Positions 1,199 through 37,034 of a DNA stretch of 37,552 nt are shown here, piece by piece. The first letter of the stretch is position 1; each line of letters starts with the position of its first letter. A program made the translations under genes and the position numbers. The notes under the pieces are model-generated. The model was not told the origin of the DNA and searched no databases. It saw nothing but the letters and a program-made list of their open reading frames with translations. The stretch comes from Catajapyx aquilonaris (taxonomy: Eukaryota): contig KZ539111.1 in NCBI GenBank assembly GCA_000934665.2, forward strand, positions 1 to 37,552, read 5' to 3'.

Positions 1199-3129
1199 TT
1201 AATCATCATCAGTCACCATGTCCATGATTCTAGTCACTAAAGTACTGTAACCACGTTCCTTACCATTGTCATTAGAATCCTCAGAGTTGACAGTACTATA
1301 AGAGGAATCGTCATATTCCTCCTTTTTGTCCAATGATTCATCAGTAATAGTTTCGTTACGTTGGTCAGAAGAGCGACGAACTGTCAACTTTTGTCTCGTA
1401 ATTTCTGTCTTACGAATGACAGTTCTGTCCATTTCTGTATTCTGGCTTTTGTTACTTTCGCGGAATTCTTCATTGTTTTCATGAACTAGAAACTCATCAG
1501 ATTTGGAATCTTCATCATTCACTTCTCCTCCATTTGAATCATCGTCACTCTTACGAATGATTGTTGAACGCTTAGTAGTATTTTTATATTGTCCGCCAGT
1601 CTCGTTTTTGAAACTTCCATCATCGGAGATATTTGATTTGCGTGTAATTATTTTTTCTTTAATAATAAGGCTATTCATCATAGCTACGGCTTCGCCAGAT
1701 GGAGTGTCATATCCATGAAGGTCAAAATCGTCAGAGTCACTGTCAGAAGAGGTCGCAGACTCATCGTCTGAGTTAGTGTCATTGTGATGGTTGGAAGATT
1801 CCTTATTGACTGTTCTATTGATTGATATAATGGTCCTTTCTATCTCTTCAACGGACTCAGAGCTATCACCATCAGAAGTTACATCACCTGATGCTCCGTC
1901 GCGAGATTTGTGAGAGTGCTTCTCGTCGATATCCTCAATTATAATTTTAACAGTCTTCTTTTTCTTCTTCTGATCACCACTTTTTAACATATTTTCAATT
2001 ATATCTTCTAGGCCATCCATAGAATCTTCGAAAATTTCAGAGTCAGAATCTGGAACTTCCTCAGAACTGCATTCCTCGGAGTGAGGAGGGGTGGGAGGAC
2101 GCTTCGAGGTAGTGCGCTTAGGGGGTGTGGTAGTGGTACGTTTGGTAGTACGAGGGGTAGTAGGTTGCGTAACTCGTGTAGTAGGACGTCTAGTGGCAGT
2201 TGTAGTTGTGCGCTTGGTAGGTCTAGTGGTGGAACGTCTACTGGTGGAACGCCTCGTGGTAGGCCGTGAGGTAGTACCTCTCGTGGTGGGCCTGGGACTT
2301 CTGATCGTGCTACGGGTCTGTTCAGAGGTACCAGTTCCCGGTGGAGTAGTAGCAGTAGACTTGGGTGTGGTTTTGGTCTCCTTAGTCGTGCTGGCAGTAT
2401 CTTCGGGTGTAGTTCCGGTTCCCTTTGGAGTGGTGGCAGTAGACTTGGGTGTGGTCTTGGTCTCCTTAGTGGTGCTGCCAGTTTGTTCTTCTGTCGTGCC
2501 AGTTCCCTTTGGAGTGGTGGCAGTACACTTGGGTGTGGTTTTGGTCTCCTTAGTCGTTCTGACAGTATCTTCGGGTGTAGTTCCGGTTCCCTTTGGAGTG
2601 GTGGCAGTAGACTTGGGTGTGGTCTTGGTCTCCTTAGTGGTGCTGCCATTTTGTTCTACTGTCGTGCCAGTTCCCTTTGGAGTGGTGGCAGTAGACTTGG
2701 GTGTGGTTTTGGTCTCCTTAATCGTGCTGGCAGTATGTTCGGGTGTAGTTCCGGTTCCCTTTGGAGTGGTGGCAGTAGACTTGGGTGTGGTTTTGATGTC
2801 CGTAGTCCTGCTGGCAGTGTGTGCTACAGTTGTACTGGATTGAACTGTTGTCACATGAATCGGTGTGGTTGACGTTAAAACGCTACTAGACGTTTGTTTC
2901 TGTGTAAATGCTGACGAAGTGCTTCCAGTTTCACTGCTAGTTGTTGTTTTATTGGCACAATCCTTGTCTTCAACAGGTACAACGCATAACCTTTGGTCAC
3001 AGATATCGTAACAACATTTCAGTGGTTCAGGACAATCGAAATCGCATTCGCATTCGTTTTTCAGTGTCACTTTCAGCTTTTCGCAACCTCTCCCAATCTT
3101 ACTCGGGGGGCTACATTGTCCACTTCTCT
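1199..3129 (-). CDS. Gene A exon 2 (terminal): WAP domain + Thr-rich mucin-like repeats + Arg/Thr block + acidic Asp/Ser/Glu tail
   Basis: Acceptor TTCCTTTCCTTTCTAG|AG at 3130, phase 1, extends the 623-aa ORF to ERSGQCSPPSKIGRGCEKLKVTLKNECECDFDCPEPLKCCYDICDQRLCVVP, which has the WAP cysteine pattern with the DxDC..KCC core. Stop TAA at 1201-1199. Joined to exon 1 the CDS is 1995 nt (664 aa). Confidence 0.9.
2311..2815 (-). repeat. Coding minisatellite: six 84-bp (28-aa) units, consensus TTKETKTTPKSTATTPKGTGTTxExxxS
   Basis: The motif gcagta(g/c)acttgggtgtgg recurs at 2352, 2436, 2520, 2604, 2688 and 2772. Confidence 0.95.
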
Positions 3130-3455
3130 CTAGAAAGGAAAGGAATGGTGCGTTTTTTCAAGCAACATTTATACAACCCTTGATGACATGATTTCATTAA
3201 CTTGGGAAATGTAACGAACTTTATTCGTGCATATTGGGAATATACCCCAATATTCCAATACTGTATACGGTAAATATTTGATTCCCGAAATAACAGACTT
3301 CAAGAGACTATTATGGTCGTGGCTTGATACATCCACTTCTCCACTTTTGCAACCAATGCATTTCTTTTCTATTTACTATAATATGCATGTCGATGCCTAT
3401 AACACACACTACTATAAATTACTAAGTGAAATCCATCAAAATTTGGAAAAAATGT

Positions 3456-3782
3456 TTTCCCGTGATAAGGCGGAGCCTTTTTAGGGGGGTTGCCCTCCAC
3501 CATCAGTTTTCTTTGTATATTGTACTTTTCTTCATTCACCGGTGCAAGGAATCACAGCTATTGGGTAAGGAAAGGGATTTTCGGGGAGGCAACATGGGTG
3601 AAAGTTGAATGTCGTTAAATGGGTCATGTGCAGTTCCCCAGGAGGTTAGGTTGCTAGACACCTCCTTGGTGCAGGTCAGAGACCCTCATGACGCAGGTGA
3701 AAGGAAAGTTCCCCAGGCGGGGATCGAACCTGGGGCCTTTCACTCAGCAAACCGAGACGTTACCATCTCGGCCAAACCCCCA
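3456..3782 (-). mobile_element. tRNA-derived SINE, family 1, copy 1
   Basis: Head has A box TGGCCGAGATGG and B box GGTTCGATCCC. Body is closely similar to 35290-35636. 3' stem-loop tail present. Confidence 0.85.
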
Positions 3783-4179
3783 AATTTGAATATCAACTCA
3801 ACCGAAAATTATGCAGGACAATAAAATTCGTAATATTTTGTGCTGCAGTCTCATAGGCAATATACCAGCAAAGGCTTATTTTCCCATCAAGGGTCCAAGA
3901 AAATAATGGTATGTAATAGCCGACTTGATGTAAAATGAGTCTAGCTGTTAGTTAAGGAGTAAAAATACAAATCTGCAGAGACCGGCCTTTTGCGTTGGTA
4001 TAACAGAAAATCTGTTATAGCCGCGGCTGTAATATATGGATTCAACTATTGCCTACAATATTACCTTCTTATGTAATATACCGTACTCTTAATGTGTTTT
4101 ATTACCTTTATTGTAATCGTCTATTTCTTTTTCAACGCATTCCTATATCAATTTACACAATAAATTATTGACGTATCTA

Positions 4180-4680
4180 CAGGGAGTTTCTGAATGCGAC
4201 TGACAAACTTGTAGGGGTAGTAGAGGGGACTATGACAAATATTTTTCGCCTAGGAACACGTGTCCAGAAACGCCATCTATAGAGGGAATCAATAGACGAG
4301 GAACGCGTGCGCCACACGTGTCAGATGGGAGGCGCTAGCATGAGGGCTGTTTAGCACACGGACAGCAAAAAATGGCGCATTTCTCAATAACCTGGTAACA
4401 ACTGTGCCACAGTCTAGCAACTAAAGCTCGTTTGCTAAGCAGGGAGCGGATAGTAAACAACGCTTGTTGTTACCAGGTTATAGCGAATTACGCCATTGTT
4501 TTCCACCTAGCAACTAAACAGTCCGCATGCTAGCGCCTCCCACCTGACGCGTCTGAGCGCAACCGTTCCTCGTCTATGGATTCCCTCTAGATGGCGTTTC
4601 TGAACACGGATTCCCATGTGAAAAAGATTTGTCTTGGTCCCCTCTATTATCCCTAGTTTGCTGAATTCAGAAACTCCCTG
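4180..4680. mobile_element. Tc1/mariner-type MITE with long imperfect TIRs
   Basis: TA|CAGGGAGTTTCTGAAT...ATTCAGAAACTCCCTG|TA. Inverted similarity extends over 100 bp, with an additional internal inverted segment. Confidence 0.85.
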
Positions 4681-6490
4681 TATACGTAATAGTAAGTTAA
4701 TATATTTATATGGTGTACTTGTATCACACGAGTCAATTTCTTTCACCTACGCATATTATTTTCCACGTTGTATTTTTCGCGTCCTTTAGGCTACCATACT
4801 GTTTTGAACTGAAAGCAAAATAATTCACATTTGTGTCCATTTGTTTGATAGATATCGTTCATTATGGGAACTGGTACTTCATAGAGGTGGAATCGTTATT
4901 ATTTGCTGGGACATCAATTTCGTTCCTCTTTTCGAGTTCATATTTTCAGATTTGTAGCAACTACCTTATGCATAGTTTGAAAAAAATCACCTGCCTACAC
5001 TTTTCTGTGCGTTAAAATGTTTATTATAGGCGATAACGTTAAATGTGAGTATTTTCGGGCTACGCAAGCTTGTTCCCGAAAGAATGTGCGCCAAAATCAA
5101 GGTATAAAATACCCTAGCAGATGTGTATCCTTGTACGCGACCGTACCTTTTTCATTAAAAATTTGGGTGTGATCACGTGATCGTAGATTTTTCAATGCAA
5201 GATACTACCCTTCTGCCCATGAGGTTTAGTACGCTATAGCTTTGGCGATGCAAGTGTCGCACATTACCGCTACATAGGAGTATGTTTGACGTACTGTGTC
5301 TTTTATGCTATTTATCTCGATAACTAAGTTGCGAAGTTCTATTATACTTATATTATTTTATTATTTTACTATGCTAGTCTAGAACCCATCTATACTATGC
5401 CTCAAAGTTTGCGCACTTTATTTTTTCGCACCTTGTACAACTCATTTATGTGTTAAAGTTTAATCCTCCGTTAAACTTAGATTTCTCCGATATAATATGA
5501 ATACTGTTCTTCACAAACTTCATTCGTGAAATAGTCAGTTCTTTATTACATTCTTAAAATTCCACAGGAAATACAGTATATCATTTTCTTCTATTTATTT
5601 TTAAGGCCCAATGCCGTAATATATGAAGAGAACAATATACATAGGAATCACACATATCACATTTTCGCAATAGTTCATTTAAATTTAGGAAATTATGGAA
5701 TCAAATAGGTAATCCTTCATTCTTCCTTGATAATCTTGACTATACATCGTACGGCTGGACCATTTACAATGTAGTATGCCTATTCTTGATTCTCGTGTAC
5801 AATTAAATTCGGGAAATGGGCTTATTTCGTTCTTTCCAGCAATTTCGGGGTATAATTGTGCCTATTTTGGTTCAGCTAAGAAATAATTGTCCTAATATAT
5901 TAGCCTGAAATAAATTTTGCTGATTGATGTCTCTTAAGCTGTCAGTTTTAAGTATGTGAGAGTTTTTAGCCTAGTCGAATGGTAATAAGGCATAATTTAC
6001 AATCCTACATTTCTGATCTATAAGAAGTGCAGTATAATTATGAGGGTGGCTCATATAATCCCTTGGGCTTTTGTCGATTAATAAATAATAATAGGCAATA
6101 TTATTATAAGGACCTCACATTTAAAAGGGAGTTTGTGCTTCTCAAACCAATTATATTATAATGGAAGGCAATTGGTAAAATTAGCATTACATAAATAACT
6201 CAGGGTGTGCCACAGTCAAGGGGAAAAAGTTACTCTCACTATTACCTTGTAGACAATGAGGCACGCTATTGTGGAATTACACTGTATAGTGTATTCATTG
6301 CATTATTGCCGCAAATTGTATACTATACATTTATATCTTGCCAGTGCAAGATGCATGTTATTGCATACTGTATAATATTGCATTAAATTTTACGAGGTAT
6401 CTTCGGAAATTGTAATATCCAAGGTATGACAACTCCCCCTCTTGGTGATTCTCTTATTGTCTTAGAGTCTTAGACTATAGCAGGGGGAAG

Positions 6491-7563
6491 CTTCAGAGTT
6501 TTGGGAGGTGGCTTATATAAGTTGGCAACCATACTTAGCCCCGACGCGCCCCCTGCTGGGTTTTTGTAAGGCCCGATTCACACGGTCGCTTTGGTTGTTC
6601 GCCTTTTCTGCCAGTGACGTCATTCAACAGAGCTGAAAGAGTGGCAACTTTCACGCCGACCCCTCCCGCCCTCCCACCTCCCTGTCAAAAACCTCCCTTT
6701 GCTTGCTGGGTGGGGGAAGGCGGTCGGGAAAGCGCAAGGAAAATAGAGCATGGGCTATTTGGTTGAAGGAACTAACTCCGCCCCTTTCGGCCAGGCCCAA
6801 ATCACCTACTGCGCATGCTCCCAGGACTATTGGAGGCTCGTGTGAATCGGGCCTAAGGAATTTAGAACGTCTGGTGGGGAAATATTTCACCCCTGCAGGG
6901 TAACCAACTACGTTAGCGTAAATACTGTAAACAAACTAATTTCATCCTTGAGGTTTCAATACATAACGCCCATCTCCTTTGAAAATAAGTGTGAAATTCC
7001 CAAAGGTTGGCTGCCCCACATGTAACCAGTGGGGGATGATAGGAGGGAGCCAATCACGGACCGAGAAAAATGGGTCCCCCCTAACACGTGACTTATCGTA
7101 GCTCCGCCCTCCACCTCTTCTTCCTTCTTCCCTCTCAGTAGGGTCTCTGCTTTCGACATGTTCATATCGGGGCTCTGAGCTCTGCCTGCCCCACTGCCCC
7201 ACTCACTGAGGTTCCATTGCTCCCGCTTCGAATTTCAGAGTTCTTTTTCAGAACCGCGGGCATATCCCTACTCAGGTAGTTTCCTTGGCATTTTGCTTGG
7301 CTATTCGTCGCCCTCCCGTCCGCCCCCACTCGCCCCTGAACCCTCAGCTATCAACCAGAACTTGGTATGAGCAGCAGACAAGCAATTTGAAATTTGAGCC
7401 AGATTCCTGAAGGTTTATTATTTACAAGACTGGTAAATAAAAGTGCAAATAAAACTTGTGCGAACCTACTTCCAACCCTATCTAACCCTGATTGGTCGAC
7501 TGGTAGTGGATGGGGGCTAATTATGGTTGCCAAGGACACAAGCCACCTCCCAAAACTCTGAAG
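6491..7563. mobile_element. Non-autonomous TIR DNA transposon (superfamily not assigned) carrying a nested MITE
   Basis: Perfect 24-bp inverted repeat CTTCAGAGTTTTGGGAGGTGGCTT at 6491-6514 and 7540-7563, plus a subterminal TTGGCAACCATAxTTAGCCCC inverted match. No clear TSD. Confidence 0.75.
6570..6853. mobile_element. PIF/Harbinger-type MITE nested in the 6491-7563 element
   Basis: TAA|GGCCCGATTCACACG...CGTGTGAATCGGGCC|TAA: 15-bp TIR and 3-bp TAA TSD. Confidence 0.85.
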
Positions 7564-8231
7564 TTATGTATCGCAATTTGATCGGATATAATGCGCTGGG
7601 TGGAATAATCCTTTTCAAGTTGGATCTAGAAAATGTTAGCTCAGTTTCGGATATTCTGTACGCCTATTATTATGGCGATTTGTTAAGTTAACGGTAGGTT
7701 ATATCGCAGGAACTGACAATCATGTAAATTATGCATGAATCTCGTACGTGTTTGTGGGAATGCCCGATCCCACGGATTATATGCAACTATACTATGTGAT
7801 AGGGGTTCACTTTATCCTAATAAGATACTGCAGTGACACAACTCATGGGATTATTTCCATTGGCAAATTTAGCATGCACATGATTATAATATTCTTAAAA
7901 TCCATTAAATTGTCGCACCAAAATATTAGAAAATATCCACGTTGAAAATCTACAACGAGTTAACTGGCATACATGAAGAAATATCTGCTCTAACTTGAAA
8001 ATACAATAGAGTGCCGTATGCCATATGCCTTATTGATGTCTGCTATACTGTATTTTAGCTATGAAGCAGCGACAGTCACATGAACATGTGATCAGCATGA
8101 TTAAACTATATTATTTTGCACTACAATCACTTCTTATGACCAGACTGGAGTAACAAACTAGCTAACTGTCGAATATGTGTTATCAAGGACCTTCAGTGAC
8201 AAAGTGAGTTGCTGAGAGGTACAGTACATAC

Positions 8232-8295
8232 CTTGCCGAGCCAGTGCAAGTCCTCCGCAGAGAAGTAAGATGATGATAATCAACTTATTCTCCAT
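8232..8295 (-). CDS. Gene A exon 1: signal peptide MENKLIIIILLLCGGLALARQ
   Basis: GCC-ATG-G start context, hydrophobic core with ALA cleavage motif, donor AAG|GTATGT in phase 1 matching the phase-1 acceptor at 3129, upstream TATA box. Confidence 0.85.
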
Positions 8296-8362
8296 GGCTG
8301 CAACTGATGTGATCAGCTGTGATCACCAAGAGACAGTGGAGCCTATTCAAGGGGGAGGGCCC

Positions 8363-8369
8363 TTTTATA
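8363..8369 (-). promoter_or_regulatory. TATA box of gene A
   Basis: CTATAAAAGG on the minus strand about 70 nt upstream of the ATG. Confidence 0.7.
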
Positions 8370-9285
8370 GGCAAGACCCTTTGATTTGATATGCACATCT
8401 CCGATGAAATGCCCAAGTGTTTTCTTCTTGTAAAATAGAAACGAACAGACACGAGCTACAGTACGCATATGAATAAATATTAGGAGTCAATGCACACCTT
8501 TCATCTCATTAATTCAAGCATATCCAGATCCTTTTTGTAAAGGTTCACTTACATTTTCTTTTGACGTATGTAGCGTTAAGCCACGTTTAAATCTTGGTTT
8601 ATAGTTTCACCTTTACAAGGTGAGCGTAGGAAGGTAATGCCCGTGTGTAATAAAGATAATCATTGCAGGAAATGTTAATTTGCATGTAGGCGCCATTTAA
8701 TATAAATCGCCTTTTTGAGGTTCTATATCATGACGCGGTGCCACTTGACAACAACGTCTATGGTATTTGTGAAAACTAGTTCGCTGATTTATTGTGGGAG
8801 TGACGAGAATTGGGTACATTTCCATCATAAAAACATCACTTGTGTAGGCATTAACTGCTTACGTACACATTCATTTACTAAAAGTTATACGGTGGTCAAG
8901 TAACATACATTTTTATCATGGTTGTGAGAGATTAACCACATTTAAACAAGCGGCAGCCATGAATCTATGAATCTATGAATATAATTATATAAAATATATA
9001 ATATATAGTATAATATGCAGGGGTTAAATTTTCGTGTGATATACATTTTTCTAATCAGATTAACACACATGACATAAGATTAAAGTGTAGTAATTATGAA
9101 GGCTATTGCAACATTGTACAGTTTCTCAGTGGCGCGGCGTCCAGTCTTTCCTGCAGGTGTTTTTTCTCAAACCACTATTGAAATCATATAGTGGAAGACC
9201 TTGTGGAAGTATAAAAGGCTAAATAAAATAAGAAAGAGAGGATAGGAAAATAAACAAGCCACTTCTTAAAATTAAATTTGATTAG

Positions 9286-9529
9286 ATACACGGTGATGGG
9301 TCCACTAGGGCCATTTAGGGGATCATCTTTTCAACACCAGACTTGATTAACTGCCTGCACAGTGATGGATTTATATGAGGAAACTGAAAACCCCTGAGAA
9401 AACCCATGCGAACACAGAGAGAGCCCATCGAAACTATTTACCACATGACAAAATCCTTTGTCCAATCCTGGGATAGATCTAGGGACCTCAGAGGTGGAAG
9501 ACTGTGTCAATAACCATACACCAAGTGCC
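9286..9529 (-). mobile_element. tRNA-derived SINE with V-SINE-like core, family 2, diverged copy
   Basis: Aligns along its length with 20875-21137, including the AAAGATGATCCCCTAA tail. Confidence 0.75.
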
Positions 9530-11783
9530 AATTTGTGAGGAAAAAACTTTGTGGACAGTAGCTCAGAATCTAGAAAATTAAGTACTGTAGTTCTCTTTAC
9601 GGCTCGAGAGAGAAACTCACAATTGAACTTCCCAAGACAACTTTGTCAGGTGACTGTGAATACACAGAGCTGATATGAATGGGAGACAGGGTATTACATA
9701 ATTAAGCAAAAATGTAGGGGCACAAAATTACTTGCGCGCCATGATAAGGATGTAGGCTACTCTGCACAACAACAACTTAGTCTGCATCATTACAACTCTG
9801 CAGTCATCATAATCTTGCACTTTGGTTCATATCGATCGTACACAATTTTGTGTCTCTACCTGTTAATTTTGTTTTGTGATCACGAACCCATAACATCATG
9901 TTTGGAATATCTAAGAAGTTATTTGTGGCGCACCAGTTCTATGCATTTGTTGACCTCTTGAGGCAATTAATGGCACATTTTTAATTGAGGTTTGGCACGA
10001 TAAGGAATCAAGGACATGCTGATTATTTGCGAATTGTCACTACCAGAATGATATAAAAGCTATTCGCCCCTACCCAACAGAATCTTGTAGGATGTTGGAA
10101 ATCACATGTAACCAGACGCATACAGTAATATATTCTTTATGCATATCTAAAATAAAGATTAGACCCGTAATTAAATTTGCAGTTTTAATCACTTATGCCT
10201 AAGTTGTCATCATAAATAGATAGGCAGGCGAATATTTTTAACAGTCGCATGGATTCAAGCGAAACTATACTGTCAAAATAGCAAGAGCGCATTCAACGGA
10301 AATAACGCCTGAGCGAAAACCAAAGACTGAAATGTAGAGGGGCAAAATTGCGTAGGAGTAGCCAACATCCCCAATCAAGCAGGTGACTATTTGTGCAATA
10401 TATAGCGCGAGAGTAACTGATTGTGATGATAAGTAAGAAAGTAGGTTTCCGTCGCTGGAACCAACTTTTGTGCCTCTACCGTTTCCTCTTCTTTGCATCT
10501 CTGGCACCCGTTTCTTTCAACATTGTTCTCTACATTTGGACGGTCGTGGCCTACACAGACATCATTAAATGAGTGTTGGCTTTTTGATGGTCGCACTTAT
10601 ATAGGCTCGTAACCAAGCTATAGTAACGAACAGTTCAACATATAGTAGCTACTATTCGTCATTAATTTATTATAACTTATATAGACTATGCATGCATTCA
10701 TTCACATTATTGACAAGTCTTGCCCCATTTCTTACAGACTCATCTCGAGCGCTCTTCGCATACGGTACAGTAGTAGTTAGTTCATACATGCTTTCTCTAA
10801 ACAAAAATAATCATACGGTGTAGCATGTTGGGCGAAAAGCCATGTAATGTGAGAGACCTTAACCAACCAGTAGTTTTGAACTGAATATTTACTGACTTAT
10901 CGTATTTTACAAATAAACTATTTCAAATAAAATGTCTAGTCAATCATTCCTCTTTTTTAATGGCGGAATTATACACCAAAATGAAGGGGTGTAAATGCTG
11001 TGCTGCCATCCTACCGCAAAAAATGCACAAATTCTAATCGCGATAATTATACGACATCGTAGTTGTTTGGGACAGACATCTCTATAGGAAGGACCACCAT
11101 AATTATGGCAATGTGCCTTGCAATGTGCATTTGTGTCTTTTTTCGGTAGGGCAGCAGTATAGGTCAAAATATTTCAAAGCCTCCTCTGACCAGTCCCACA
11201 CATGCACATCTAATATTAATCTATATTGATATCAATGTTTAAAATATTTCCAAAATGAACTTTGGAACTCCAATATACCTTCAGGATTCAGAAATGTTGT
11301 ATTTTTTATAGAGTTTTGGACCTCCTCTGTAACATTCCTCCTTCGCTTCGTATACGTTCGTAGGCACATTAATGTACTATGGTAATTTATTAAGCTTTGT
11401 ACAAAATTCACACCAAAAGGAGGTCATATGCCGTGTTTCGTATATTACTGTATGCTCTATCACATGGTTTCGCAAGGCAAGAGAGGTCGAAAAACATCTG
11501 TTTGGGTGTACGTGGTGTTGCTGCTCCAGTTGTACTGTACAAATTGAACTGGCAACTACGTAACACGAAGGGAGCTCGTGATAGCATCAGGTAGGCTCTA
11601 CATGATACAGTATGCTCTGTACTGTACATTACGTTCCTTCTTTAGTATAATTATTATCACACTGTACTATATCGCTCAAAAATATAGAGACGATTTTGAA
11701 TTTGATTCAAGTGCATAGACATGTGCAACAAATCACAAGAGATTTTTTAAAGCGGTATTCCATCAATATTATTGGGGATGTAT

Positions 11784-12142
11784 TATTATTATTATTATTA
11801 TTTTTTTTTTTTCATTACCCCACGGGGGGAGTTACATACTCCTTAGGGGGGGTGGGTTACCACCTTTGGAAATTTGTGTTGGAGCGGGTTTAAGAATAAT
11901 CTTAATTAGTATGCTCCAAGGGTGGGTGGGAGGGGATGTGCAAAGTGCAAGTGCAATGTCTCTAATCGTCATTTTGTGAACTCCCCCGGGTGGCTTAGTC
12001 TGTCGGAAATTGCCACCCGAAACGAAGCCGGAGATGGCCCAACTCTGCACGAAAGAAGGTGGGAACCCCGGGTGGGGATTGAACCCGGGACCTTAACTTC
12101 CGTGGGCGCGCGCGTTACCGCGGCGCCACTCCGTCTCCCCGT
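11784..12142 (-). mobile_element. tRNA-derived SINE, family 3, copy 1, with TSD
   Basis: A and B boxes (TGGCGCCGCGG, GGTTCAATCCC), A/(TAA)n tail, 17-bp TSD TATTATTGGGGATGTAT at 11767-11783 and 12143-12159. Second copy at 30243-30616. Confidence 0.9.
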
Positions 12143-12352
12143 TATTATTGGGGATGTATGTATATGTCTACGCAGGGTTCCCGAAATTTATAGCTTTCAC
12201 AATCAGTTTTACACGTTTAAAGATATAGATTGTTTGAACTGCAGTGCATAGGCATACTTTTCTTCGTATTAAAAGGCAGCAGTAATCAAAGCAGAAAAAC
12301 AAAATAATGGGCGCAAACATAGCAAATAACCAATTTCACCCCCCCCCCCCCC

Positions 12353-12566
12353 NNNNNNNNNNNNNNNNNNNNNNNNNNNNNNNNNNNNNNNNNNNNNNNN
12401 NNNNNNNNNNNNNNNNNNNNNNNNNNNNNNNNNNNNNNNNNNNNNNNNNNNNNNNNNNNNNNNNNNNNNNNNNNNNNNNNNNNNNNNNNNNNNNNNNNNN
12501 NNNNNNNNNNNNNNNNNNNNNNNNNNNNNNNNNNNNNNNNNNNNNNNNNNNNNNNNNNNNNNNNNN
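12353..12566. other. Assembly gap (N run) between a poly-C tract and a (TA)n tract
   Basis: 214 N characters. Confidence 0.99.

Positions 12567-12650
<84 letters not shown>
12567..12650. repeat. (TA)n microsatellite
   Basis: Pure TA run adjoining the gap. Confidence 0.98.
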
Positions 12651-12651
<1 letters not shown>

Positions 12652-13182
12652 GATAATGTTTCATTCGGACATGTTTCCCTTCTCCAAAGTCATAAATGGA
12701 CAGACCCAGTGTTAATAACCATTGCTGAAAATATATTTGTATAAACATCAGGGACATTATATACGGTATCGTTTATTTTCTCGCGAGCTATGCATAACCA
12801 ATAGAGGCTTCAAACTTTACATGAAGCTCTTTTTTTGTTTTTGTTTTGTTTTTGTTTTTTTTTGCAAAAGCCACATATGTCAAAAATGGTAGAAAACGAG
12901 TTATGGCCACCACCGCTTAGTTCCAAGCCTTGCGCTCTAAATGCTGCAATCGAAACGCAGGCAGGACAATATATTGTCAAGGGAGAAAACCAAGGTAGAA
13001 AAAATGCACCTTACGCAAGAACAGCAGATGTCAGTTCATCCCAGCTAACATTTTACAGAAAAACAACAGCTATCAGTGACATCTGTTGTTCTTGCGTAAA
13101 AAGTAGCATTCCACCAAACATGGTTCTATGATCTTCAGCGGTTATAGCTACAAGACAAGAGCAACGTCCAATGTCAGCAATA

Positions 13183-13314
13183 CCAAGAGCTAATATGCTG
13201 CGGTCAAACGGCCGAGCCCGTCTGGGGAGTCGCGCCAGTTCCGCGGAGAGGATGAGGAACCCAGCTCTATGCAAGGGATAGGGGACTCGGAGGCTCTCAG
13301 TTATTAGCTCTTGA
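13183..13314. mobile_element. Short MITE candidate
   Basis: 12-bp inverted repeat CAAGAGCTAATA/TATTAGCTCTTG with TA on both sides and a GC-rich interior. Confidence 0.5.
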
Positions 13315-14461
13315 TATCACATATATTACATGTTTTACATACATATGCATTATTCATTATTACAACGAGCATAAAACTTGATTGCTTCGGGTGGGAAGTG
13401 CAGCTCACAGAGATTATAGCTTCGGTAGGAAGGTCCACCCCACTGTCCACCCCGGTTCCACCCTCAGTGGTAACAATAGCAATAAGTCGTGTCTATTCCT
13501 GAGAGTCGGCACCAGCGCAGTCATTAAAAAGCTGTGGCTCCTTTGAGAACCCAGAAAATGTGATCCCAGCCCCAGTGCGCGAACAGCGCTGTAGCGAGCG
13601 GCGCACAACCTGCTAGGCCGCGCGGCTAGGCCCCGCCATAATACCGGCGAAGAAACTCGCCTCCCTAGGCCGGAGGACGGACAGGTTGGCCAGCTGCGCC
13701 GAATATCAGTTTCGGGTCCAAAAATTAGTGTCTTAACCGCATACGACTCTTAATTATGTATGTAAATAAAGTGACTCTTTCACTAGCTGGATTCAGAACA
13801 GTCGTACTTTTCATTTGCTCTCCATTTCCCTTGCCCTCATACGTTCGGCAGGGATCATAACACTGTCTATACATAAATATTATACCAAACGATACCAAAC
13901 TAAAAGCTATGTGACGTGCTGACGATGTCGTAACAGTACCAGTTAGCTCATGTAGTGTTACCCAAAGTGCTAACAGGTTCGTTGGGGAGAATATGTTTTT
14001 ATTCATGTGAGTGGTTGTGTATAGGTGCACTGACTTGCCTGGGGGTCTGCAATGCTGTTATAGGCCGGCCCGTATTATACAAATACGTATTATTAGATTT
14101 ATTACACCCGCGAGTACAGTACCGTACTGGAGTATAGGCAGGGATCACGAAAAGCAAGACGAAAAGGAATTTCGTATCGTATCGTATATCTATTCTATCG
14201 TATCACCTCTGTGCCTATTTTGTAAGACAGGGCAGGGCAGGGAATCGGGCCACCCCGCAGCTCGGCCACGGGAGATCAGTGGTAGTACACATTCACCGAC
14301 CACGGCAGACCTCACAAATCGCGGCAAAACTCACAAACCCTATCAATAACACCAGAGGGCGCAAACATTTTGCCTACCAACAAGATGGCCGCCTCTGTTT
14401 TAATGACGTAGACCGTAGAGCTAAAAGGTAAAGGTCCATAGCATGATCTTAAAATACTCAT

Positions 14462-14502
14462 GTCTGGTCACTCCCACTCACCCCCTGCCGGGGCGTTTTG
14501 CA
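14462..14502 (+). repeat. Dispersed repeat, probably a transposon end, also at 37503-37543
   Basis: GTCTGGTCACTCCCAC(T/C)CACCCCCTGCCGGGGCGTTTTGCA is shared with one mismatch. Confidence 0.7.
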
Positions 14503-15402
14503 GGGGGTGCTCACCTGAGAGCGCCATGAGACATTTCAGAGCACTGGTATGTGGCGACCCTACCGGACTACGCTGAACTTTATAGGTACGAAAGGAAGCG
14601 GCCATTTTTGATCCCGACAGGCGACTTACAGGTGCTGCCACCCACCCGTATCTTTGCGGGCCTTTCCTTCCCGCAGCCCTTGCGGGAGCGCGACACGATA
14701 ATTCCACTTCGGGAGTTGCCGGGGCGTGACGTCATGTTTACGGGCGTTTGCGACTTGCGGGCCTCCCGTAAAGTCCACGAGAATCCAAGCAATAGCCACC
14801 AGATGTGCATTTTCTAAATTCCCGTCACCCCCGATTTCACCGGCATGCTGCAGTATATGCGGTACAAGTAGGCCACAGTACATAATCTTATTTCTTTTCC
14901 AAGCTGACGAAATATATTAAGTACCTGCTGCCCCGATACAATCATTAGTCAGTATAGTTGGCACCAAGGAAGCCTAGAGAGCCTACTCAGCCTACCCATA
15001 CTTACAGTATATGATAGGAAATTACAACATGTCATAAAATACCTGTACTATTAAGGCAATATTAGCATTTCATTTTATACTGTATAATTTGTGCTTTGTT
15101 GCAAGAGTATCAGTGTGAGAGCAGATATAAATCTTGTAATGTTGGCACATTTAATTTCACATGCACTTCTACTGCACACTTGTAATGGAAACACATGCAA
15201 ATTTATTCCAGATGGCATATGTATATGTGGCAAGCCAGTGAAAACTTTTGCCCAGTAACTTATTTTCGAACTATTTCGAACAGGAGTATTAAACCTTACA
15301 CTTGAGCAAGTCCTTAAAAATCCTTAAATATATTTTTCTTTGAGAGTACATCATCACACATGAAATAGGCAAAACACTTTGCACTTAATAATCACACTTG
15401 CC

Positions 15403-15408
15403 TTTATT
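15403..15408 (-). terminator. Candidate polyadenylation signal of gene C
   Basis: AATAAA on the minus strand about 180 nt after the stop. Confidence 0.5.
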
Positions 15409-15588
15409 AAACCAATTAATGCATTACAACAGTCTTTGATCAACACAATATTACACCACACTAAGGTCCAAGGGTGTAGCCTACTAAATAACAGTCATAT
15501 TCCCACATCTCTATGCAAATGTGCCTACAGTCTTGATTACAATATAGCACAATGCAATGAAGGAATATGCATAGTAGTGGTAGTAGTG

Positions 15589-15812
15589 TTAATAGGTGTC
15601 AATGTTGGCCTTGACAGGGTATTTACAAATCTTTCCACATCCTTCTGGACAACACTTTCTACCCATTTTACACTCCAAATCTGTCAAACAGTTTACTCCA
15701 GGACGAAATTCACAAGTGCCTACTTTGTCTCTTGCAGGTGGACACACCCATGGATTTTCCGGAGGAAGGGCATATGTTTGGGTTGTTGTCTCAGCAACAG
15801 GCCTCTTTTCAG
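15589..15812 (-). CDS. Gene C exon 3 (terminal): linker + canonical 8-Cys WAP domain
   Basis: Acceptor ATTCTTACAG|CT, phase 1. Encodes CPPARDKVGTCEFRPGVNCLTDLECKMGRKCCPEGCGKICKYP, then TAA. Confidence 0.9.
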
Positions 15813-16190
15813 CTGTAAGAATTGATGACATCAGTAAATTCCTAGACATGCTGAAATATGCACAGATAATCCTGATCCAGGGATAAAATACAGTTGTAGT
15901 AGGCTACTATAATCTCAATTTAAAATTTTCAACGAGATGAAAATTTTAAAATGTTTCATGCAACCCTGCATGGGCTATAATAAATTCTGACGATACTGGA
16001 ATCTGAAAAAAAAAAAACACTTCTACATACAGTATAAGTTATGCAGTATATCCAGAGGTGTCACATAAAGGAGGTCATGTCCACATAATTTACTCTTGTG
16101 CAAGGGATGTTCACTGATTGATTAGATGTGATTTCATGTAGCAGGCCCTATCCCTCAAATCAACCACGATTATTCTGATGCCGCTATTAA

Positions 16191-16884
16191 CCCCTTCGCT
16201 CCCAGATAGGCCCGAACCACGTAGATTTTGGATTATGCGTAGCCTACTCCGAAGATACGGACAAGATATTTTACAAATAATAACAGCTATACTTATCACT
16301 TTCAGGGAAAACACTATGAATGTGTCTGAAACAATTTTACTTGTCTAGAAGTCCCTAAATTAATTGACAAAAAAAGGCTATGAAAACTCAAAATTCGAGT
16401 ACTGCCGACCAACTGTTAGGCTGATTTAATTATGAAATGTGTGAAAATATGTGGAATAAGAACTTTGAGAATACTTATTTGCGGCTTTCTGGCACTTCGG
16501 AAAACTCCCAAATTTATTTACTATTTTCCAAAATGCCAGAAAGCCGCAAATAAGTATTAATTTATTTCTCGCAAAGTATGACGAGTTCAGCAAATTCGTC
16601 TGGCATGGTTCTCAAGGTTGTTATTCGGCATATTTTCACGCATTTCATAATTAAATCAGCCTAACAGTTGGTTGGCAGTCCTCCAATTTCGAGTTTTTAT
16701 AGCCTTTTTTTGGAAATTAATTTAGGGTCTTCTAGACAAGTCAAATTGTTCCACACACATTCATAGTGTTTTCTCTGAACATGGTAAGTATAGCTGTTAT
16801 TATTTGTAAAATATCTTGTCCGTATCTTCGGAGTATGCTTACGCCAAGATTTACATGGTTCAGACCTATCCGGTAGTGAAGGGG
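16191..16884. mobile_element. piggyBac-type fold-back MITE in gene C intron 2
   Basis: TTAA|CCCCTTC...GAAGGGG|TTAA with inverted arms of about 280 bp and an internal palindrome AATACTTATTTGCGGCTTTCTGGCA. Confidence 0.9.
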
Positions 16885-17033
16885 TTAAAAGACAATTGGA
16901 AGTCCACGCCTCTTACAGTCTGTTGACTTCAGTAGGTTGATACTGAAATTGGTGACCTAACTCTAAAATCTCACTTCAAAATAATAAAAAATACTTTCCT
17001 TCCTTGATTACACCCAAGCATGCAATGACTTAC

Positions 17034-17129
17034 GGCAAACTTTTGCTGTACAGACATCTGGCTCTCCTTGAACACCACACCAACAATCATTACATCCATC
17101 AAAGTACCACTGGTCCAAATAACATGGAT
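17034..17129 (-). CDS. Gene C exon 2: pacifastin (I19-type) inhibitor domain
   Basis: 96-nt phase 1-1 exon (TTTGACCCAG|...|GTAAGT) encoding DPCYLDQWYFDGCNDCWCGVQGEPDVCTAKVC, matching C-x9-CNxCxC-x3-G-x4-CTxxxC. Confidence 0.88.
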
Positions 17130-17200
17130 CTGGGTCAAATAAAAACAAAATAAAAATGTCAAAAAGAGGAGTATAAAAGCTTACGTATACACAAACACAC

Positions 17201-17264
17201 CTGGTCGGCCAATACCCATAACCACAGCAAGTGACATGGACAATGCACACCACAGAGCAGCCAT
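17201..17264 (-). CDS. Gene C exon 1: signal peptide MAALWCALSMSLAVVMGIGRP
   Basis: Hydrophobic N-terminus, donor CAG|GTGTGT in phase 1, 71-nt intron, TATA box about 40 nt upstream. Total CDS 384 nt (127 aa). Confidence 0.78.
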
Positions 17265-17301
17265 TATCTCTCATGTCCATGTATGTACTTTCGTTTATGT
17301 G

Positions 17302-17309
17302 TTTATATA
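17302..17309 (-). promoter_or_regulatory. TATA box of gene C
   Basis: CTATATAAAC on the minus strand just upstream of the signal-peptide exon. Confidence 0.6.
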
Positions 17310-17344
17310 GCTCTGAGAACTGCATAGGTTAGCAAATAGCTCAT

Positions 17345-17350
17345 TTTATT
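17345..17350 (-). terminator. Candidate polyadenylation signal of gene B
   Basis: AATAAA on the minus strand about 90 nt after the stop at 17442. Confidence 0.55.
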
Positions 17351-17441
17351 ACTTTGTGAGTGGTGACAATGCATGTATAATCAACATCAGATAAACACAC
17401 ATATGTGTCTCCATAATAGAAAGGGGACTACAGGTCTTTGT

Positions 17442-17599
17442 TTAGGTGGATGGTTGGCAAGTGGTGGCACCACAAATGTTCACACAGCATGTTGTATCCT
17501 TAGGACACTCAGAGGTGGATTGGCAAGGTTGTCCTGAGCTACAAGTGGGCAGGTGACACACTTGAAGCATGTCAGATGTTGACCGCTTGAATGGTGAAG
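17442..17599 (-). CDS. Gene B exon 3 (terminal): KR-containing linker + compact 8-Cys WAP-like domain
   Basis: Acceptor ATATTTACAG|CT, phase 1. Encodes SPFKRSTSDMLQVCHLPTCSSGQPCQSTSECPKDTTCCVNICGATTCQPST*. Confidence 0.85.
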
Positions 17600-19184
17600 C
17601 TGTAAATATCAAGTTGTTGAATAACATGTGTATAATGTGTACATGGCACAAAGTGACACATATATTCACTGCAAAATTTACTTTAAAAACATCACTAAGG
17701 CCAGTTGTATCAATGTGTATTAAGAAGAACATCTATTGTGCAGTGTGAATACTATGTGATCACAATAATTGTATCACATGCAGTAGTCCACCTCAAGGCC
17801 AGTGACATGCAAGTGGCAGCATGTAAATATTTAAAAAATAACCCAAAAATTAAAAATGGGACTAGATAATATTTGTATGCATAATAATTATAAATTCAGA
17901 ACATTCCCACTACTGAAATATGCATAAGTCGGTCACATGTGTTACACATTACTACTTAATTTTTTATTTAGGTCAAAGGCATCATTACATATTTTAGGTG
18001 GAAATATTGATTCAGCTGGAATAATATTTTCTTAAATATGTGAGTGCCATGTCTAATGCAGATATGACAGACTGTCAGATGATCCACTATTGTATTGAGC
18101 TATATGGATTTGATGATAATCATAACTGAACTGGCAGGGGGGGGGGGATTCATCTGGTGATTCATTTAGAAGACAATCAATGAAAAAATACAATAAATGT
18201 TGCCCCGTGGCCAATTGTCAATATATGCATTGTTTAACAGCATCCTAAAACTTCACATTATTTTTTCAATAATTGTACCAATGTTTTACACAGCAGGTCA
18301 TAGATTTAACAATGTTTGTAATTTTTAATGCAACGAACGAATGTAACCAAGGATGGTAATAAACATTATGATAATTATAATCATTATTTATTTACTAAAC
18401 AATAATGCCAAGTCACAACCTATACCAAGTGCACAAAGCATTCTGAAACTAACTGTAAATTAAAAACCTCTCGATACACTGACTAAGCAAGGTCTCCCCT
18501 TTTAAATTATTCTTTATGAGTGAATTTATGCAACGTCTCTCAGCTTCTCTTTCAATATTGGAAGCATATCAGTCAGTCCTTTTTTGACACACTCTCCTTG
18601 TGCTCTATACAAGCTCAGAGGTCACTGACACCATCAATTTAGTGAAGGTTCTATTTTTGTAGAAAGCTCTCAAGAAATGTGAAGGGGCAAAATCCATTTA
18701 ATAGTGCATGTTGGGAATATGCACTGTGTTTGTTACCCCTAAAATTATGCTGCAGAGAGGGTGGTACTAATTTGCATGATGCAACAAAAAACCAGTTGTT
18801 ATTTTTTGGCAGATTACATTGCAAATCATCTGGAAGACCTCAATACATATTGTAATGATGTAAAACATAATGATAAATCATCTCTTTGTTCATACCTTGT
18901 ACATTACATGGCAATGACTTTGTATGAGTACCTCCACATTTTGGTGTTACATCACATACCTATGTGTGACAAGTTGTATTTAAAACCCTGATATGATTTG
19001 CCACTGTTCACTAAACCACACATTTCCATGATAAATTCTTGCACATAAGAATCACCAGCAGTCGATATAGTCACTGCAACCAACTTAATTTATTTTTGGG
19101 TACCATAGTATGAGGTGGCAGAGCTTATTTTTCTTCCCTATCCCCATAACTTTAAAAATGATTTATTATTATAGAAAACCTTAC

Positions 19185-19298
19185 TTTCACCGGGTGGGAT
19201 GCAGAACTTCCTGGTACAAGCAGGCGGTGAATTCCCAATGCACAGGCAGATGTTGCATCCATCAAAGTACTGCTTGGTCACACCATCAGCACAGGGAT
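19185..19298 (-). CDS. Gene B exon 2: pacifastin (I19-type) inhibitor domain
   Basis: 114-nt phase 1-1 exon (ATCTTTTCAG|...|GTAAGG) encoding PCADGVTKQYFDGCNICLCIGNSPPACTRKFCIPPGE. An alternative in-phase GT lies 6 nt earlier, at 19190. Confidence 0.88.
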
Positions 19299-19380
19299 CT
19301 GAAAAGATCGGGAACAGGAAACAGTTCATCATGAAACATCACAACCAAACATGTCAAGGGCCATGATAATCATCACTCAC

Positions 19381-19441
19381 TAAATGCCCTTTGACCTGAT
19401 GCTGCAGCAACCAGCAGGAAGATTAGGACAAGATGGACCAT
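19381..19441 (-). CDS. Gene B exon 1: signal peptide MVHLVLIFLLVAAASGQRAF
   Basis: GAC-ATG-G start, classic h-region with ASG-Q cleavage, donor A|GTGAGT in phase 1, 82-nt intron. Total CDS 333 nt (110 aa). Confidence 0.88.
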
Positions 19442-19490
19442 GTCTGCTTGGAGGAGCTGAAATGATACCCAGGCAGACAAGGAAGAGAAC

Positions 19491-19497
19491 TTTTATA
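19491..19497 (-). promoter_or_regulatory. TATA box of gene B
   Basis: TATAAAAG on the minus strand 50 nt upstream of the ATG, with an Inr-like TCATTT at 19465-19460. Confidence 0.7.
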
Positions 19498-21845: not shown

Positions 21846-21902
21846 ATGTATACATTAATGCTTTGAGGTTATATGTGCAAGTCAAGTAGGCTATCAGATC
21901 TG

Positions 21903-22808
21903 ACAAGGGAAGGTCACGGGGTGATAATGACGGATCTTGATGAAATTGATCATGCTAATACAGGACAATATATGATACCCAAATATGAAATATTTCGTGC
22001 GGAACCCCATATTTGCAAATGTTATGACGTCTCAAAGTTCTAAAAATAATACATTTTCATACTCCATGGGATTACATTAGCAACCACATATAATGACATT
22101 GAAGTGTGTAATCAGTTTCTAGACATTTTCTCATAGGGAGCATGTGAATCGATATATCGTAACCTAGGCAACTTATCGATTCCAGTATCGGCTTGGGCGA
22201 TAACATCATGGCGGCCGATGACGCTCATTGCAAACATGTCCAACGTCAGGAATAAATTCCACAGCCCCTGTGCCAGAGAGTCAGGTAAAACCCGGAGTAA
22301 ATCCCCGAAAAACACAGTCAAGAATACACGGAAACTAACTTCAAAATCCAACGATAACCCGCCCGTAAAGTAGACTTGTGTGGATAGAGTGAACCCAGAA
22401 GACCGGAAGTGGCGGGTCACCAGAAGTTGACCATGAAACCTATTTTGGTCACGCTCAATCCGAATATGAAAACCGTTTGTCGCTATCTCATACGGTTTAG
22501 GCCTTGATACCTGTCCACAGACGGACGGACGGACGGATGGCCAGAGCCGTTCTGTATGACTTTTTTCCGATGAGAAAAGGTCTAGAAACTGATTACACAC
22601 TTCAATGTCATTATACGGTATGTGGTCGGTAATGTAATCTCCCATGGAGTATGAAAATGTATTATTTTTGGAACTTTAAGACATCATAACTTTTGCAAAT
22701 ATGGGGTTCCGGACGAAATATTTCATTTTTGGGTATCATATATTGTCCTGTATTAGCATGTTCAATTTCATCAAGATCCGTCATTATCCCCCCGTGACCT
22801 TCCCTTGT
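21903..22808. mobile_element. Fold-back TIR element with arms of about 230 bp and an internal (GGAC)n tract
   Basis: ACAAGGGAAGGTCACGGGG...CCCCGTGACCTTCCCTTGT. Arms 21903-22134 and 22570-22808 are inverted copies. Confidence 0.88.
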
Positions 22809-22892
22809 GAGTATATGCTCTGAAGTTCTCCTACAGCACACTGTCACCCCCTCTCACAGCTAACTTGAACCATATTGTTGTTTCATCTAGTG

Positions 22893-31760: not shown

Positions 31761-32076
31761 CACCACACCCCTCAAATCTGTTCACTATACAATTACTTAC
31801 ACCAATTTTTTTCCTTTAAAGGAGAGTAATTTAAACGTGTTTATAAGGAGCTCTGATAGTCACAAAATAATTTTCCTTGCTAAGACAAATTCTCTAGCAG
31901 GAGGGTTGTTACACGGAGAGTACAATGTGTATTATGACCAGATATTCTCTTAGTTGAGATGGTTCCTGCCACCAGTGTCAAACATTTTTCTGCTAATTAC
32001 TATGCAGGTTATAAAAAAAATCACAGTCAAAACGAGCCAACAGGAGATGGGTTACCTCTCAAGTTACATAGACTAC

Positions 32077-32280
32077 TCACTTGAGTTGCGCCAACTCATC
32101 CTGTGACTGCACCTCTGCCAGAATAGCACACTTCGGCTGGAACGAGTCAAAGTAGACATTTGCCTGCTTGTGCACACTTCGTACATGGGCCCGGAGATTG
32201 TCCCTGCGTGCAGATCTGTATGGACAGTGTGGGCACAGATGCGGTTTTTCACCGGTATGGATTCGGCGGTGTTGGATCAG
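32077..32280 (-). CDS. C2H2 zinc-finger gene, third visible exon (end of finger 5, TGEKP linker, finger 6, C-terminal tail)
   Basis: Acceptor TTTCTTTTTATGGCAG|, phase 0. Encodes LIQHRRIHTGEKPHLCPHCPYRSARRDNLRAHVRSVHKQANVYFDSFQPK...ELAQLK*. The stop overlaps a GTGAGT donor, so the gene may continue. Confidence 0.92.
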   Translation of the reverse strand: MIQHRRIHTGEKPHLCPHCPYRSARRDNLRAHVRSVHKQANVYFDSFQPKCAILAEVQSQDELAQLK

Positions 32281-32462
32281 CTGCCATAAAAAGAAAGAAA
32301 AGACATTTTAGCATTTTATTCCAACAAGGTACTTTTGAATCTAATGACTGCAGATAGCTTTGTAAAAAACTAAAGTAGGGCTTAGGAGGAAAGCATGATT
32401 TCATTCATTGGGGTGTCTGCTAAGAGTAGACAAGAGAACATTGATACAACCAACTGACTCAC

Positions 32463-32727
32463 CTTGCTCAGCTGAACAGTCCGGAACGTCGTACACATGT
32501 CACAGAAGTAGTATTTTCCACTGCAGTGCTTCCGCATGTGTCGCTTCATATCCACATCAGATGGCCTGTCCTTCCCACACACCACACAGGATATCTTTAC
32601 TGGACCTCCTGAAGCCACAACTCTTGCCACCCCTTCTAACTTGTGCTGCCTCTGGTGCTTGCGAAATGCCTTTTCTATAGTGCATGTGTATGGGCACACA
32701 GGGCACTGGTACTCTTCTGTCTCATAC
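32463..32727 (-). CDS. C2H2 zinc-finger gene, second visible exon (fingers 3, 4 and first half of 5)
   Basis: Acceptor ATACTAG|G in phase 2, donor AAG|GTGAGT in phase 0. Encodes YQCPVCPYTCTIEKAFRKHQRQH, ISCVVCGKDRPSDVDMKRHMRKH and YFCDMCTTFRTVQLSK. Confidence 0.92.
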
Positions 32728-32764
32728 CTAGTATTTAAAAAAGTTTAAGTAATAATTAAAGAAC

Positions 32765-33318
32765 ATATATAGTCCTTTGTGTTAATTATCCCGTTAAAAT
32801 GTCAATGGGCAATTCATAATTGGTCGAGATAAAAATTATCGAAATTGAAGGTACACCGCTCCTGCATATCTCGCTAGTGTCTTGAACGAACATTCATGGC
32901 CCAGTAAACAGGTTTAACTCCTGATGTAAGTCTGGTGACTAATTTTCTTTAAACATTACAAATTCTGAACCAATTAATACTTTAGTAATTCAATAATTTT
33001 CCAATGATTTTGTCAATTATTACGATTACCATTACTTAATGGTAATTATAATAACTGACAAAATCATTGGAAAATTATTGAATTACTAAAGTATTAATTG
33101 GTTCAGAATTTGTAATGTTTAAAGAAAATTAGTCACCAAACTTACATCATGAGTTAAACCTGTTTACTGGGCCAAAAAATACCCAATGAATGTTCGTTCA
33201 AGACACTAGCGAGATATGCAGGAGCGGTGTACCTTCAATTTCGATAATTTTTATCTCGACCAATTATGAATTGCCCATCGACATTTTAACGGGATAATTA
33301 ACACAAAGGACTATATAT
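32765..33318. repeat. 554-bp near-perfect inverted repeat (fold-back) in the zinc-finger intron
   Basis: Arms 32765-33034 and 33037-33318 around a 2-nt centre. By eye about six substitutions and one 12-nt indel. TA-rich ends. Confidence 0.95.
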
Positions 33319-34802: not shown

Positions 34803-35210
34803 TAGTGCTCACAAGAAACAATCGTCCAATCACACTAACACTATACCACCCAATCCAAAACTTGAAAATCAAACATCAACAAAAATTAATTTTACCTAAT
34901 CACCCAAATTGCCTAATCACACCAAATTGCGAATTTTACTCGTCATTGCCAACCTTGACCATCCTTCAATGTAGTGAAACATGCCTAAATTCGTTAGTTT
35001 ACGTTTGCTCCCAGTAGGGCGCACTGTTGTCCACAAAAAATGCAATGGTACAATCTCACCATGTTTGACGGGTATTTACGGATATAAAACCCTTGCTCTT
35101 ATTGAATAATTTTTAAACTGCTTAGTTTTTACTGTATACGCATACAAACTAAGCATACAAACTGACGTACAAACTTACGTGGCGGTGAATACGACCTCGC
35201 CACAATTTTA

Positions 35211-36972: not shown

Positions 36973-37003
<31 letters not shown>

Positions 37004-37034
37004 ATCGTCATCACCATCCTCAACAGTCACACGA
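36591..37034 (-). CDS. C2H2 zinc-finger gene, first visible exon (poly-Asp/Glu tract + fingers 1 and 2); 5' part of the gene not identified in the window
   Basis: Likely acceptor GCATTTTGCAG|T at 37035 (boundary less certain). Donor GAG|GTAAAG in phase 2 matches the next exon. Encodes FECNRCSSSFKSQMDLQKHTKRLH and YTCPVPACAYYTQNRGKLDRHLAKH. Confidence 0.85.

Follow-up and report, generated by a model that had tools for sequence, protein, structure and literature searches.

Two three-exon pacifastin-WAP genes and a mucin-like WAP gene of Catajapyx aquilonaris, and a tandemly arrayed single-exon pacifastin-WAP family

We consider it probable that the neighbouring genes B and C belong, as derived members, to a family that has expanded in this lineage and in which a pacifastin and a WAP domain share a single exon, that this unit has been split or re-partnered in both, and that they encode two-headed inhibitors, gene A being a separate mucin-like gene. 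The window, i.e. the whole stretch of DNA analysed, is one entire contig (KZ539111.1, 37,552 nt) with all three genes on the minus strand (Table 1).

Gene models of A, B and C

As predicted from the DNA, gene B comprises exons of 61, 114 and 158 nt (110 aa), gene C exons of 64, 96 and 224 nt (127 aa) and gene A exons of 64 and 1931 nt (664 aa). All five are GT-AG introns of phase 1, and after splicing every model stays open up to one stop at its end. The exon anatomy, phase-1 introns and TATA boxes described in an earlier note on this DNA are confirmed by these models. The head-to-tail layout reported there holds with regard to the common strand, but only B and C are tightly linked, with 178 nt from the B stop to the C ATG, whereas A lies 7.3 kb away from C across a run of N.

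Table 1. Positions of the exons, promoter motifs and other features of genes A, B and C in the window
Feature	Position	Strand	Remarks
TATA box, gene B	19491..19497	-	56 nt before ATG
B exon 1, signal peptide, phase-1 donor	19381..19441	-	61 nt; followed by intron of 82 nt
B exon 2, pacifastin, P1-P1' Arg-Lys	19185..19298	-	Pfam PF05375, 30.2 bits
B exon 3, Lys-Arg dibasic site, divergent eight-Cys WAP-like domain, stop	17442..17599	-	PF00095, 17.8 bits
TATA box, gene C	17303..17309	-	45 nt before ATG; just downstream of the B poly(A) signal
C exon 1, signal peptide ending in Arg-Pro, phase-1 donor	17201..17264	-	64 nt; followed by intron of 71 nt
C exon 2, pacifastin, P1-P1' Ala-Lys	17034..17129	-	PF05375, 26.4-28.5 bits
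C exon 3, Thr/Pro linker, family-type WAP, stop	15589..15812	-	PF00095, 35.9 bits
Assembly gap (N)	12353..12566	.	separates genes C and A
TATA box, gene A	8363..8369	-	74 nt before ATG
A exon 1, signal peptide, phase-1 donor	8232..8295	-	64 nt; followed by intron of 5.1 kb
A exon 2, WAP, Ser/Thr stretch, Thr/Lys repeats, Arg/Thr block, Ser/Asp/Glu tail, stop	1199..3129	-	1931 nt
Tandem repeat in A	2334..2822	-	84-nt (28-codon) unit, 5.8 copies, alternating as 168 nt

The pacifastin domain of B scores above the PF05375 cut-off of 27.9 bits, and that of C straddles it, with the lower value in one search and the higher in the other. Against the PF00095 cut-off of 20.8 bits, the WAP domain of C scores above and that of B below, the cysteine pattern of the latter being nonetheless present. 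A second intron, in phase 1, separates pacifastin from WAP in both genes (1585 nt in B, 1221 nt in C). An alternative upstream ATG for C at 17280 was rejected, the frame being closed.

Reading through the exon 2 donor meets a stop within 8-15 codons in both genes, giving potential pacifastin-only peptides, and pacifastin-only genes exist in the family described below. In addition, a weak signal-like exon was found at 18441, inside the second intron of B, so that exon 3 of B could be a separate gene. It is nevertheless very unlikely that B and C end with exon 2 and that the WAP exons are orphans or belong to genes of their own, because the predicted splice sites on both sides are canonical and keep the reading frame, the second intron of C contains no detectable signal exon, and both WAP exons are intact, each with a poly(A) signal after it. 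Searches of the A intron, the C-A spacer and the second introns of B and C revealed no hidden Cys-rich 1-1 exon, and tblastn found no dead WAP or pacifastin remnants in the latter. This absence counts against the derivation of B and C proposed below, under which a remnant might have been expected.

The two precursors may also differ in processing. The Lys-Arg site before the WAP domain of B may allow cleavage into two peptides, as judged from the residues. A Pro after Lys-Arg usually blocks such cleavage, and the Lys-Arg before the WAP domain of C is followed by Pro.

A single-exon family and the placement of B and C

Genome-wide profile searches for pacifastin gave 43 candidates, of which 19 matched at E 0.001 and 40 at E 5; for WAP, 79 of 90 candidates matched at E 0.1. 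Intact pacifastin-WAP genes numbered 22, on seven other contigs (C3308, C6058, C5235, C712, C9994, C1442 and C12040); this number is a minimum as far as the search goes and may include alleles (C12040 versus C5235 end, 96%; C16659 versus C9994, 98%). Pacifastin, WAP and stop all lie in one exon, which starts at a phase-1 acceptor. In 21 of the 22 genes a hydrophobic, phase-1 signal exon ending in Arg-Pro is located 56-385 nt upstream, and in 21 of the 22 the last pacifastin Cys and the first WAP Cys are exactly 6 residues apart. The genes are co-oriented in dense tandem arrays, mostly at intervals of 0.8-2 kb. A WAP-only derivative (C6058:10345) keeps the same signal exon, and there are a pacifastin-only derivative (C5235:2209), a pacifastin-plus-tail gene (C2964:1856) and an early-stop copy (C5235:3143). 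Domain loss therefore runs both ways, as WAP-only, pacifastin-only and pacifastin-plus-tail genes all exist. WAP-only arrays at C7131 and C8197 have phase-1 signal exons as well. The genome also contains crustin-like WAP genes. No overlap was found between the window contig and the family contigs, which could be its chromosomal neighbours, and positions 1-21000 of the window show no DNA similarity to 15 family loci at E 1e-6.

Both B and C lack the single-exon layout and the 6-residue linker. Gene C has the phase-1 signal exon ending in Arg-Pro together with a family-type WAP domain. In B, the pacifastin is of the family type, while the WAP domain is not and exon 1 does not end in Arg-Pro. For the WAP trees, 66 stretches were extracted, and removal of six duplicate extractions and one opposite-strand artefact left 59 rows, which cover part of the 79 genomic matches. 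The DNA tree contains a group of 24 rows (94/99). By subtraction, these comprise every one of the 21 family rows as well as C, the WAP-only derivative and a single outsider. The WAP domain of C groups with those of the intronless genes C3308:6111 and C9994:1546 (97/89 in the protein tree, 99/91 in the DNA tree) and shares 18/39 non-Cys residues with each of them, versus 6/30 with B and 5/36 with A. Among the best 14 matches of C exon 3 after itself, 13 are intronless pacifastin-WAP genes or one truncated at a contig end, and the remaining one is a WAP-only member. The WAP domains of A and B fall outside the 24-row group on long branches; that of B stays outside the family WAPs in protein and DNA trees alike, and no close paralogue of B exon 3 was found in the genome.

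The pacifastin trees were mostly unresolved. The pacifastin of B pairs with that of the intronless gene C5235:6062 (94/96), with 70% DNA identity. The different affinities of the two B domains therefore indicate some exon-level recombination. The pacifastin of C shares 5/25 non-Cys residues with those of its WAP sisters, last of 25 rows, which hints from the residues that C is a chimera too; an AU test did not reject its grouping with them (p 0.182). The C-terminal stub Pro-Gly-Glu of B exon 2 resembles the start of the in-exon WAP of the family, and its donor sits near the position of the first WAP Cys codon of the family genes, one residue short. This resemblance is suggestive only that the tail of the exon is a stub of an in-exon WAP. 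Phase-1 exon shuffling, the process invoked in the earlier note, thus stands as far as some recombination of exons goes, but not as insertion of pacifastin into a signal-WAP gene, which probably did not take place since the two domains already share one exon in 22 genes.

The same observation goes against a single ancestral signal-WAP gene at this locus. According to that account, two duplications of such a gene were followed by the gain of a 1-1 pacifastin exon in B and C and of a mucin tail in A, and the trio is co-expressed as a protected secretion. The three genes agree in strand, phases and possession of a TATA box, and pacifastin and WAP proteins are reported from barnacle adhesive proteomes in a part of PMC8371367. 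The WAP phylogeny, set beforehand as a test, placed C with genes on other contigs, although AU tests did not reject an A+B+C clade (p 0.317 and 0.355, on short domains); a B+C clade was not rejected either (p 0.329, on short domains with long branches). In mutual phmmer comparisons among the 59 WAPs, A, B and C rank each other only 15-58, and C combines a WAP that sits among intronless genes of other contigs with the Arg-Pro signal exon of the family. Secreted proteins of animals generally have a phase-1 intron after the signal peptide (PMC1626468), so that this intron is no sign of kinship among A, B and C. Thus, it is unlikely that A, B and C descend from a single ancestor at this locus, and we regard the account as a whole as quite improbable. 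Co-expression of the three genes could still hold, being compatible with other ancestry.

The opposite direction, in which B and C keep an ancestral three-exon shuffled form and the intron was lost once before the intronless form multiplied, is improbable as well. A 1-1 exon is the textbook shuffling intermediate, intron loss is common, and the long branches of B and C would suit an old form. However, the WAP of C is nested in a three-gene intronless subgroup, which would call for several independent intron losses. Moreover, the 6-residue linker, shared with a clam protein (see below), is missing in both B and C, and the end of B exon 2 resembles a stub of the in-exon WAP.

Based on these comparisons, we propose a course of events for the derivation of B and C from the single-exon family. 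An ancestral pacifastin-WAP unit in one exon would have multiplied into tandem arrays. A new phase-1 donor after the pacifastin would later have divided the unit in B and C or linked its pacifastin to a different WAP exon. Since every acceptor in the arrays is in phase 1, such a donor would splice in frame to another downstream WAP exon.

Gene A and the promoters

The WAP domain of A is divergent, with 17.5 bits against the PF00095 cut-off of 20.8 and 23.3 bits in the genome search; it has the cysteine pattern plus an extra Cys. No Pfam family beyond this WAP below the cut-off was detected in exon 2, and the ESM Atlas gave no usable match for the tail. The Arg/Thr block carries a net charge of +22 and the acidic Ser/Asp/Glu tail, 300 aa long, one of -36. 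Differences among five repeat copies fall 12/27/46 on codon positions 1/2/3, with 30 synonymous to 29 non-synonymous, the copies not being independent of each other in these counts. The bias towards third positions indicates that the long exon behaves as coding DNA. A signal peptide is combined with Thr-rich tandem repeats (41% Thr in the repeat region), both marks of mucin-like proteins.

In Thr-rich mucins and glue proteins such as Drosophila Sgs3, a signal peptide and a small Cys-rich cap likewise go with Thr/Pro/Lys tandem repeats. Gene A differs from Sgs3-type proteins in its WAP cap, basic Arg/Thr block and 300-aa acidic tail. No paralogue of A or of its tail was found in the genome. From its composition, A most likely encodes a separate secreted matrix protein of mucin-like character, presumably glycosylated and capped by a WAP domain, with a possible role in a glue. 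The Pfam domains and the composition and repeats of A bear out the earlier description of three secreted WAP genes, two of them small and inhibitor-like and one mucin-like.

Gene A is tied to B and C only by position and promoter type. A TATA box is present within 110 nt in all three, versus 1 of the 22 intronless family genes. At sampled positions the motif occurred 20-100 nt upstream in 260 of 5294 (4.9%), giving a chance of about 1e-4 for three out of three. The TATA boxes of A, B and C, rare as they are in family genes, would fit shared strong expression.

Known relatives and predicted function

B and C share the six-Cys domain and the C-T-P1-P1'-x-C loop with arthropod pacifastin-related precursors (PF05375, MEROPS I19; locust SGTI/SGCI and PMP-C), and the Arg-Lys pair of B is the same as in locust SGTI. 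Separate signal exons, clustered recent duplicates and variable P1 residues of arthropod pacifastin genes, described in parts of PMC2689174, are features common to the pacifastin-WAP family. In section 10 of PMC13388995 all 155 'conventional' arthropod pacifastin proteins are pacifastin-only, unlike the single pacifastin with an in-frame WAP found here. A figure legend of that paper lists WAP among the partner domains of the 'ancestral' pacifastin group; the word 'WAP' is absent from the two of its text supplements that were searched.

With the single- and double-WAP proteins (Type III/IV crustins, SLPI and elafin; PF00095, MEROPS I17), B and C have in common a signal peptide and a C-terminal eight-Cys WAP. 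Such proteins are likewise small, secreted and expanded, according to parts of PMC9680087. B and C differ from them in carrying a six-Cys pacifastin at the N-terminal side instead of a four-Cys crustin region, a Pro/Arg stretch or a second WAP. Crustin types I, II and V, whose 12-Cys signature joins a four-Cys region to a WAP in the relevant part of the same review, were ruled out for the three genes, as B and C have 6+8 Cys and A has its WAP at the N-terminal end. The main text of the review does not contain the word 'pacifastin'. With no fewer than 79 WAP matches, the genome shows a large expansion over the 0-14 WAP domains counted in each of 14 arthropods (PMC5673224, Table 1), the two counts having been made by different methods.

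Searching 1.84 billion proteins with the family profile gave 1185 matches, and the best 150 were mostly long repeat proteins, so that small pacifastin-WAP proteins elsewhere could rank below them; two of the 150 hold both halves. Mercenaria mercenaria XP_053408337 ('kielin/chordin-like') contains nine units in which a pacifastin-like domain is directly followed by a WAP, again 6 residues apart. In Pollicipes pollicipes XP_037076249 ('Balbiani ring protein 3-like'), pacifastin-like stretches before the WAPs were recognised by profile and by eye and are not called by Pfam. These clam and barnacle proteins are 940-1628 aa long with many repeats, in contrast to one unit per gene of about 100 aa here, and their pairing may reflect either homology with the family or convergence. 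A protein homologue search returned no match for C exon 3 or for one family member, a 21-sequence profile gave one of 20 candidates, a fish WAP, and the ESM Atlas returned for one family member only WAP clusters under 0.8. The free-standing form of about 100 aa was not found in these protein searches of limited sensitivity, and the literature searches made turned up no description of such a family. The pacifastin-WAP pairing is therefore not unique, given the clam and barnacle proteins; what appears to be new is a free-standing mini-protein family of this size, which is apparently undescribed and did not appear in the searches made.

The P1 residue was assigned following section 9 of PMC13388995. 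Over 26 pacifastin domains it is Glu in 6, Arg in 5, Lys in 4, Leu in 3, Met in 2, Tyr in 2, and Asp, Val, Thr or Ala in one each. The column varies, yet comes only 16th among 82 in entropy, and the term 'hypervariable P1' was toned down. The Ala-Lys pair, as found in C, is called elastase-like and enriched in arthropods in the same section. A structure model of the family member P0005, which is neither B nor C, reached a pLDDT of 78 and a pTM of 0.45. Its best matches are solved pacifastins (rmsd 1.7-2.3, E 0.03-0.1), and it separately matches the WAPs of SLPI, elafin and waprin; the overall E values are 0.03-0.2, none below 0.001. The WAPs of the family are for the most part neutral or acidic. 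Inhibition of microbial proteases is described for single-WAP crustins, some of which also kill bacteria (PMC9680087). The pacifastin loop would occupy the active site of a serine protease, with Arg at P1 directing B to trypsin-like targets and Ala directing C to elastase-like ones, and the WAP would act as a second inhibitory or microbe-binding head. B and C are most likely two-headed inhibitors of the canonical type that would serve in defence or guard a secretion.

A bolder reading, which we hold to be rather unlikely, would be a combinatorial library of at least 24 two-headed pacifastin-WAP mini-inhibitors with 10 P1 residues, in which B and C are new head combinations made by in-frame splicing between tandem neighbours. 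These would be co-secreted with the charge-blocked mucin A, basic then acidic, able to self-coacervate into a glue or coat. The P1 residues Glu and Asp would suit microbial or unusual proteases.

The expanded family matters more than the three-gene cluster itself. It departs from the rule recently put forward in the sections of PMC13388995 cited above, by which pacifastins of the arthropod type occur without partner domains, and the variety of its P1 residues makes it a natural set of disulfide-rich inhibitor scaffolds. B and C make it possible to test whether domains are re-paired within such an array.

Further contents of the window

Apart from the three secreted WAP genes A, B and C, the window carries exons of a C2H2 zinc-finger gene whose product includes an acidic stretch; this gene has no relation to the A/B/C cluster. 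Six MITE-like elements with long terminal inverted repeats were also observed, two of them within the introns of A and C, together with three pairs of dispersed repeats of SINE-like appearance, sharing 75-82% identity.

Positions of features in the window and on other contigs of the same assembly (G000:C numbers; figures after the colon are positions)
Feature	Location	Strand
C2H2 zinc-finger exons	window 32066-37207	minus
MITE-like elements	window 4212-4655, 16241-16839, 21900-22811, 32765-33318, 34091-34806, 35637-36202	
SINE-like repeat pair	window 3459-3774/35308-35623	
SINE-like repeat pair	window 11772-12138/30237-30614	
SINE-like repeat pair	window 9285-9516/20884-21117	
Signal-plus-single-WAP genes	G000:C7131, C8197, C12563, C12917, C14618, C15379, C1673	
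Crustin-like WAP genes	G000:C537:104207 and 134290; C1063:50121; C2289:9919	
Third WAP-like group	G000:C395:48374-56302; C2553; C1588; C206	
Pacifastin pair	G000:C631:49725-50012	
Two-exon pacifastin-WAP genes, dense tandem arrays	G000:C3308:756-7950; C6058:3272-10490; C5235:2090-12039; C712:69817-74760; C1442:40376-40654; C9994; C12040	

Other WAP groups in the genome

A second WAP expansion consists of tandem two-exon genes, in which a phase 1 signal exon ending in Leu-Ala-Gln or similar precedes a single WAP, with one gene carrying a double WAP. Among the crustin-like genes, one has its WAP split by a long Gly-rich insert with a Lys-Arg-Lys-Arg site, plus a Gly/Tyr tail. A third, WAP-like group has fewer cysteines and the motif C-V/I-G-D-Y/F-T/S/N-C-P; four of its copies lie in tandem on C395.

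Pacifastin domains on other contigs

One closely spaced pair of pacifastin domains has no adjoining WAP, an arrangement more conventional than pacifastin-WAP. Many of the pacifastin-WAP arrays occupy short contigs or the ends of contigs, and the arrays on separate contigs possibly represent a single fragmented locus.
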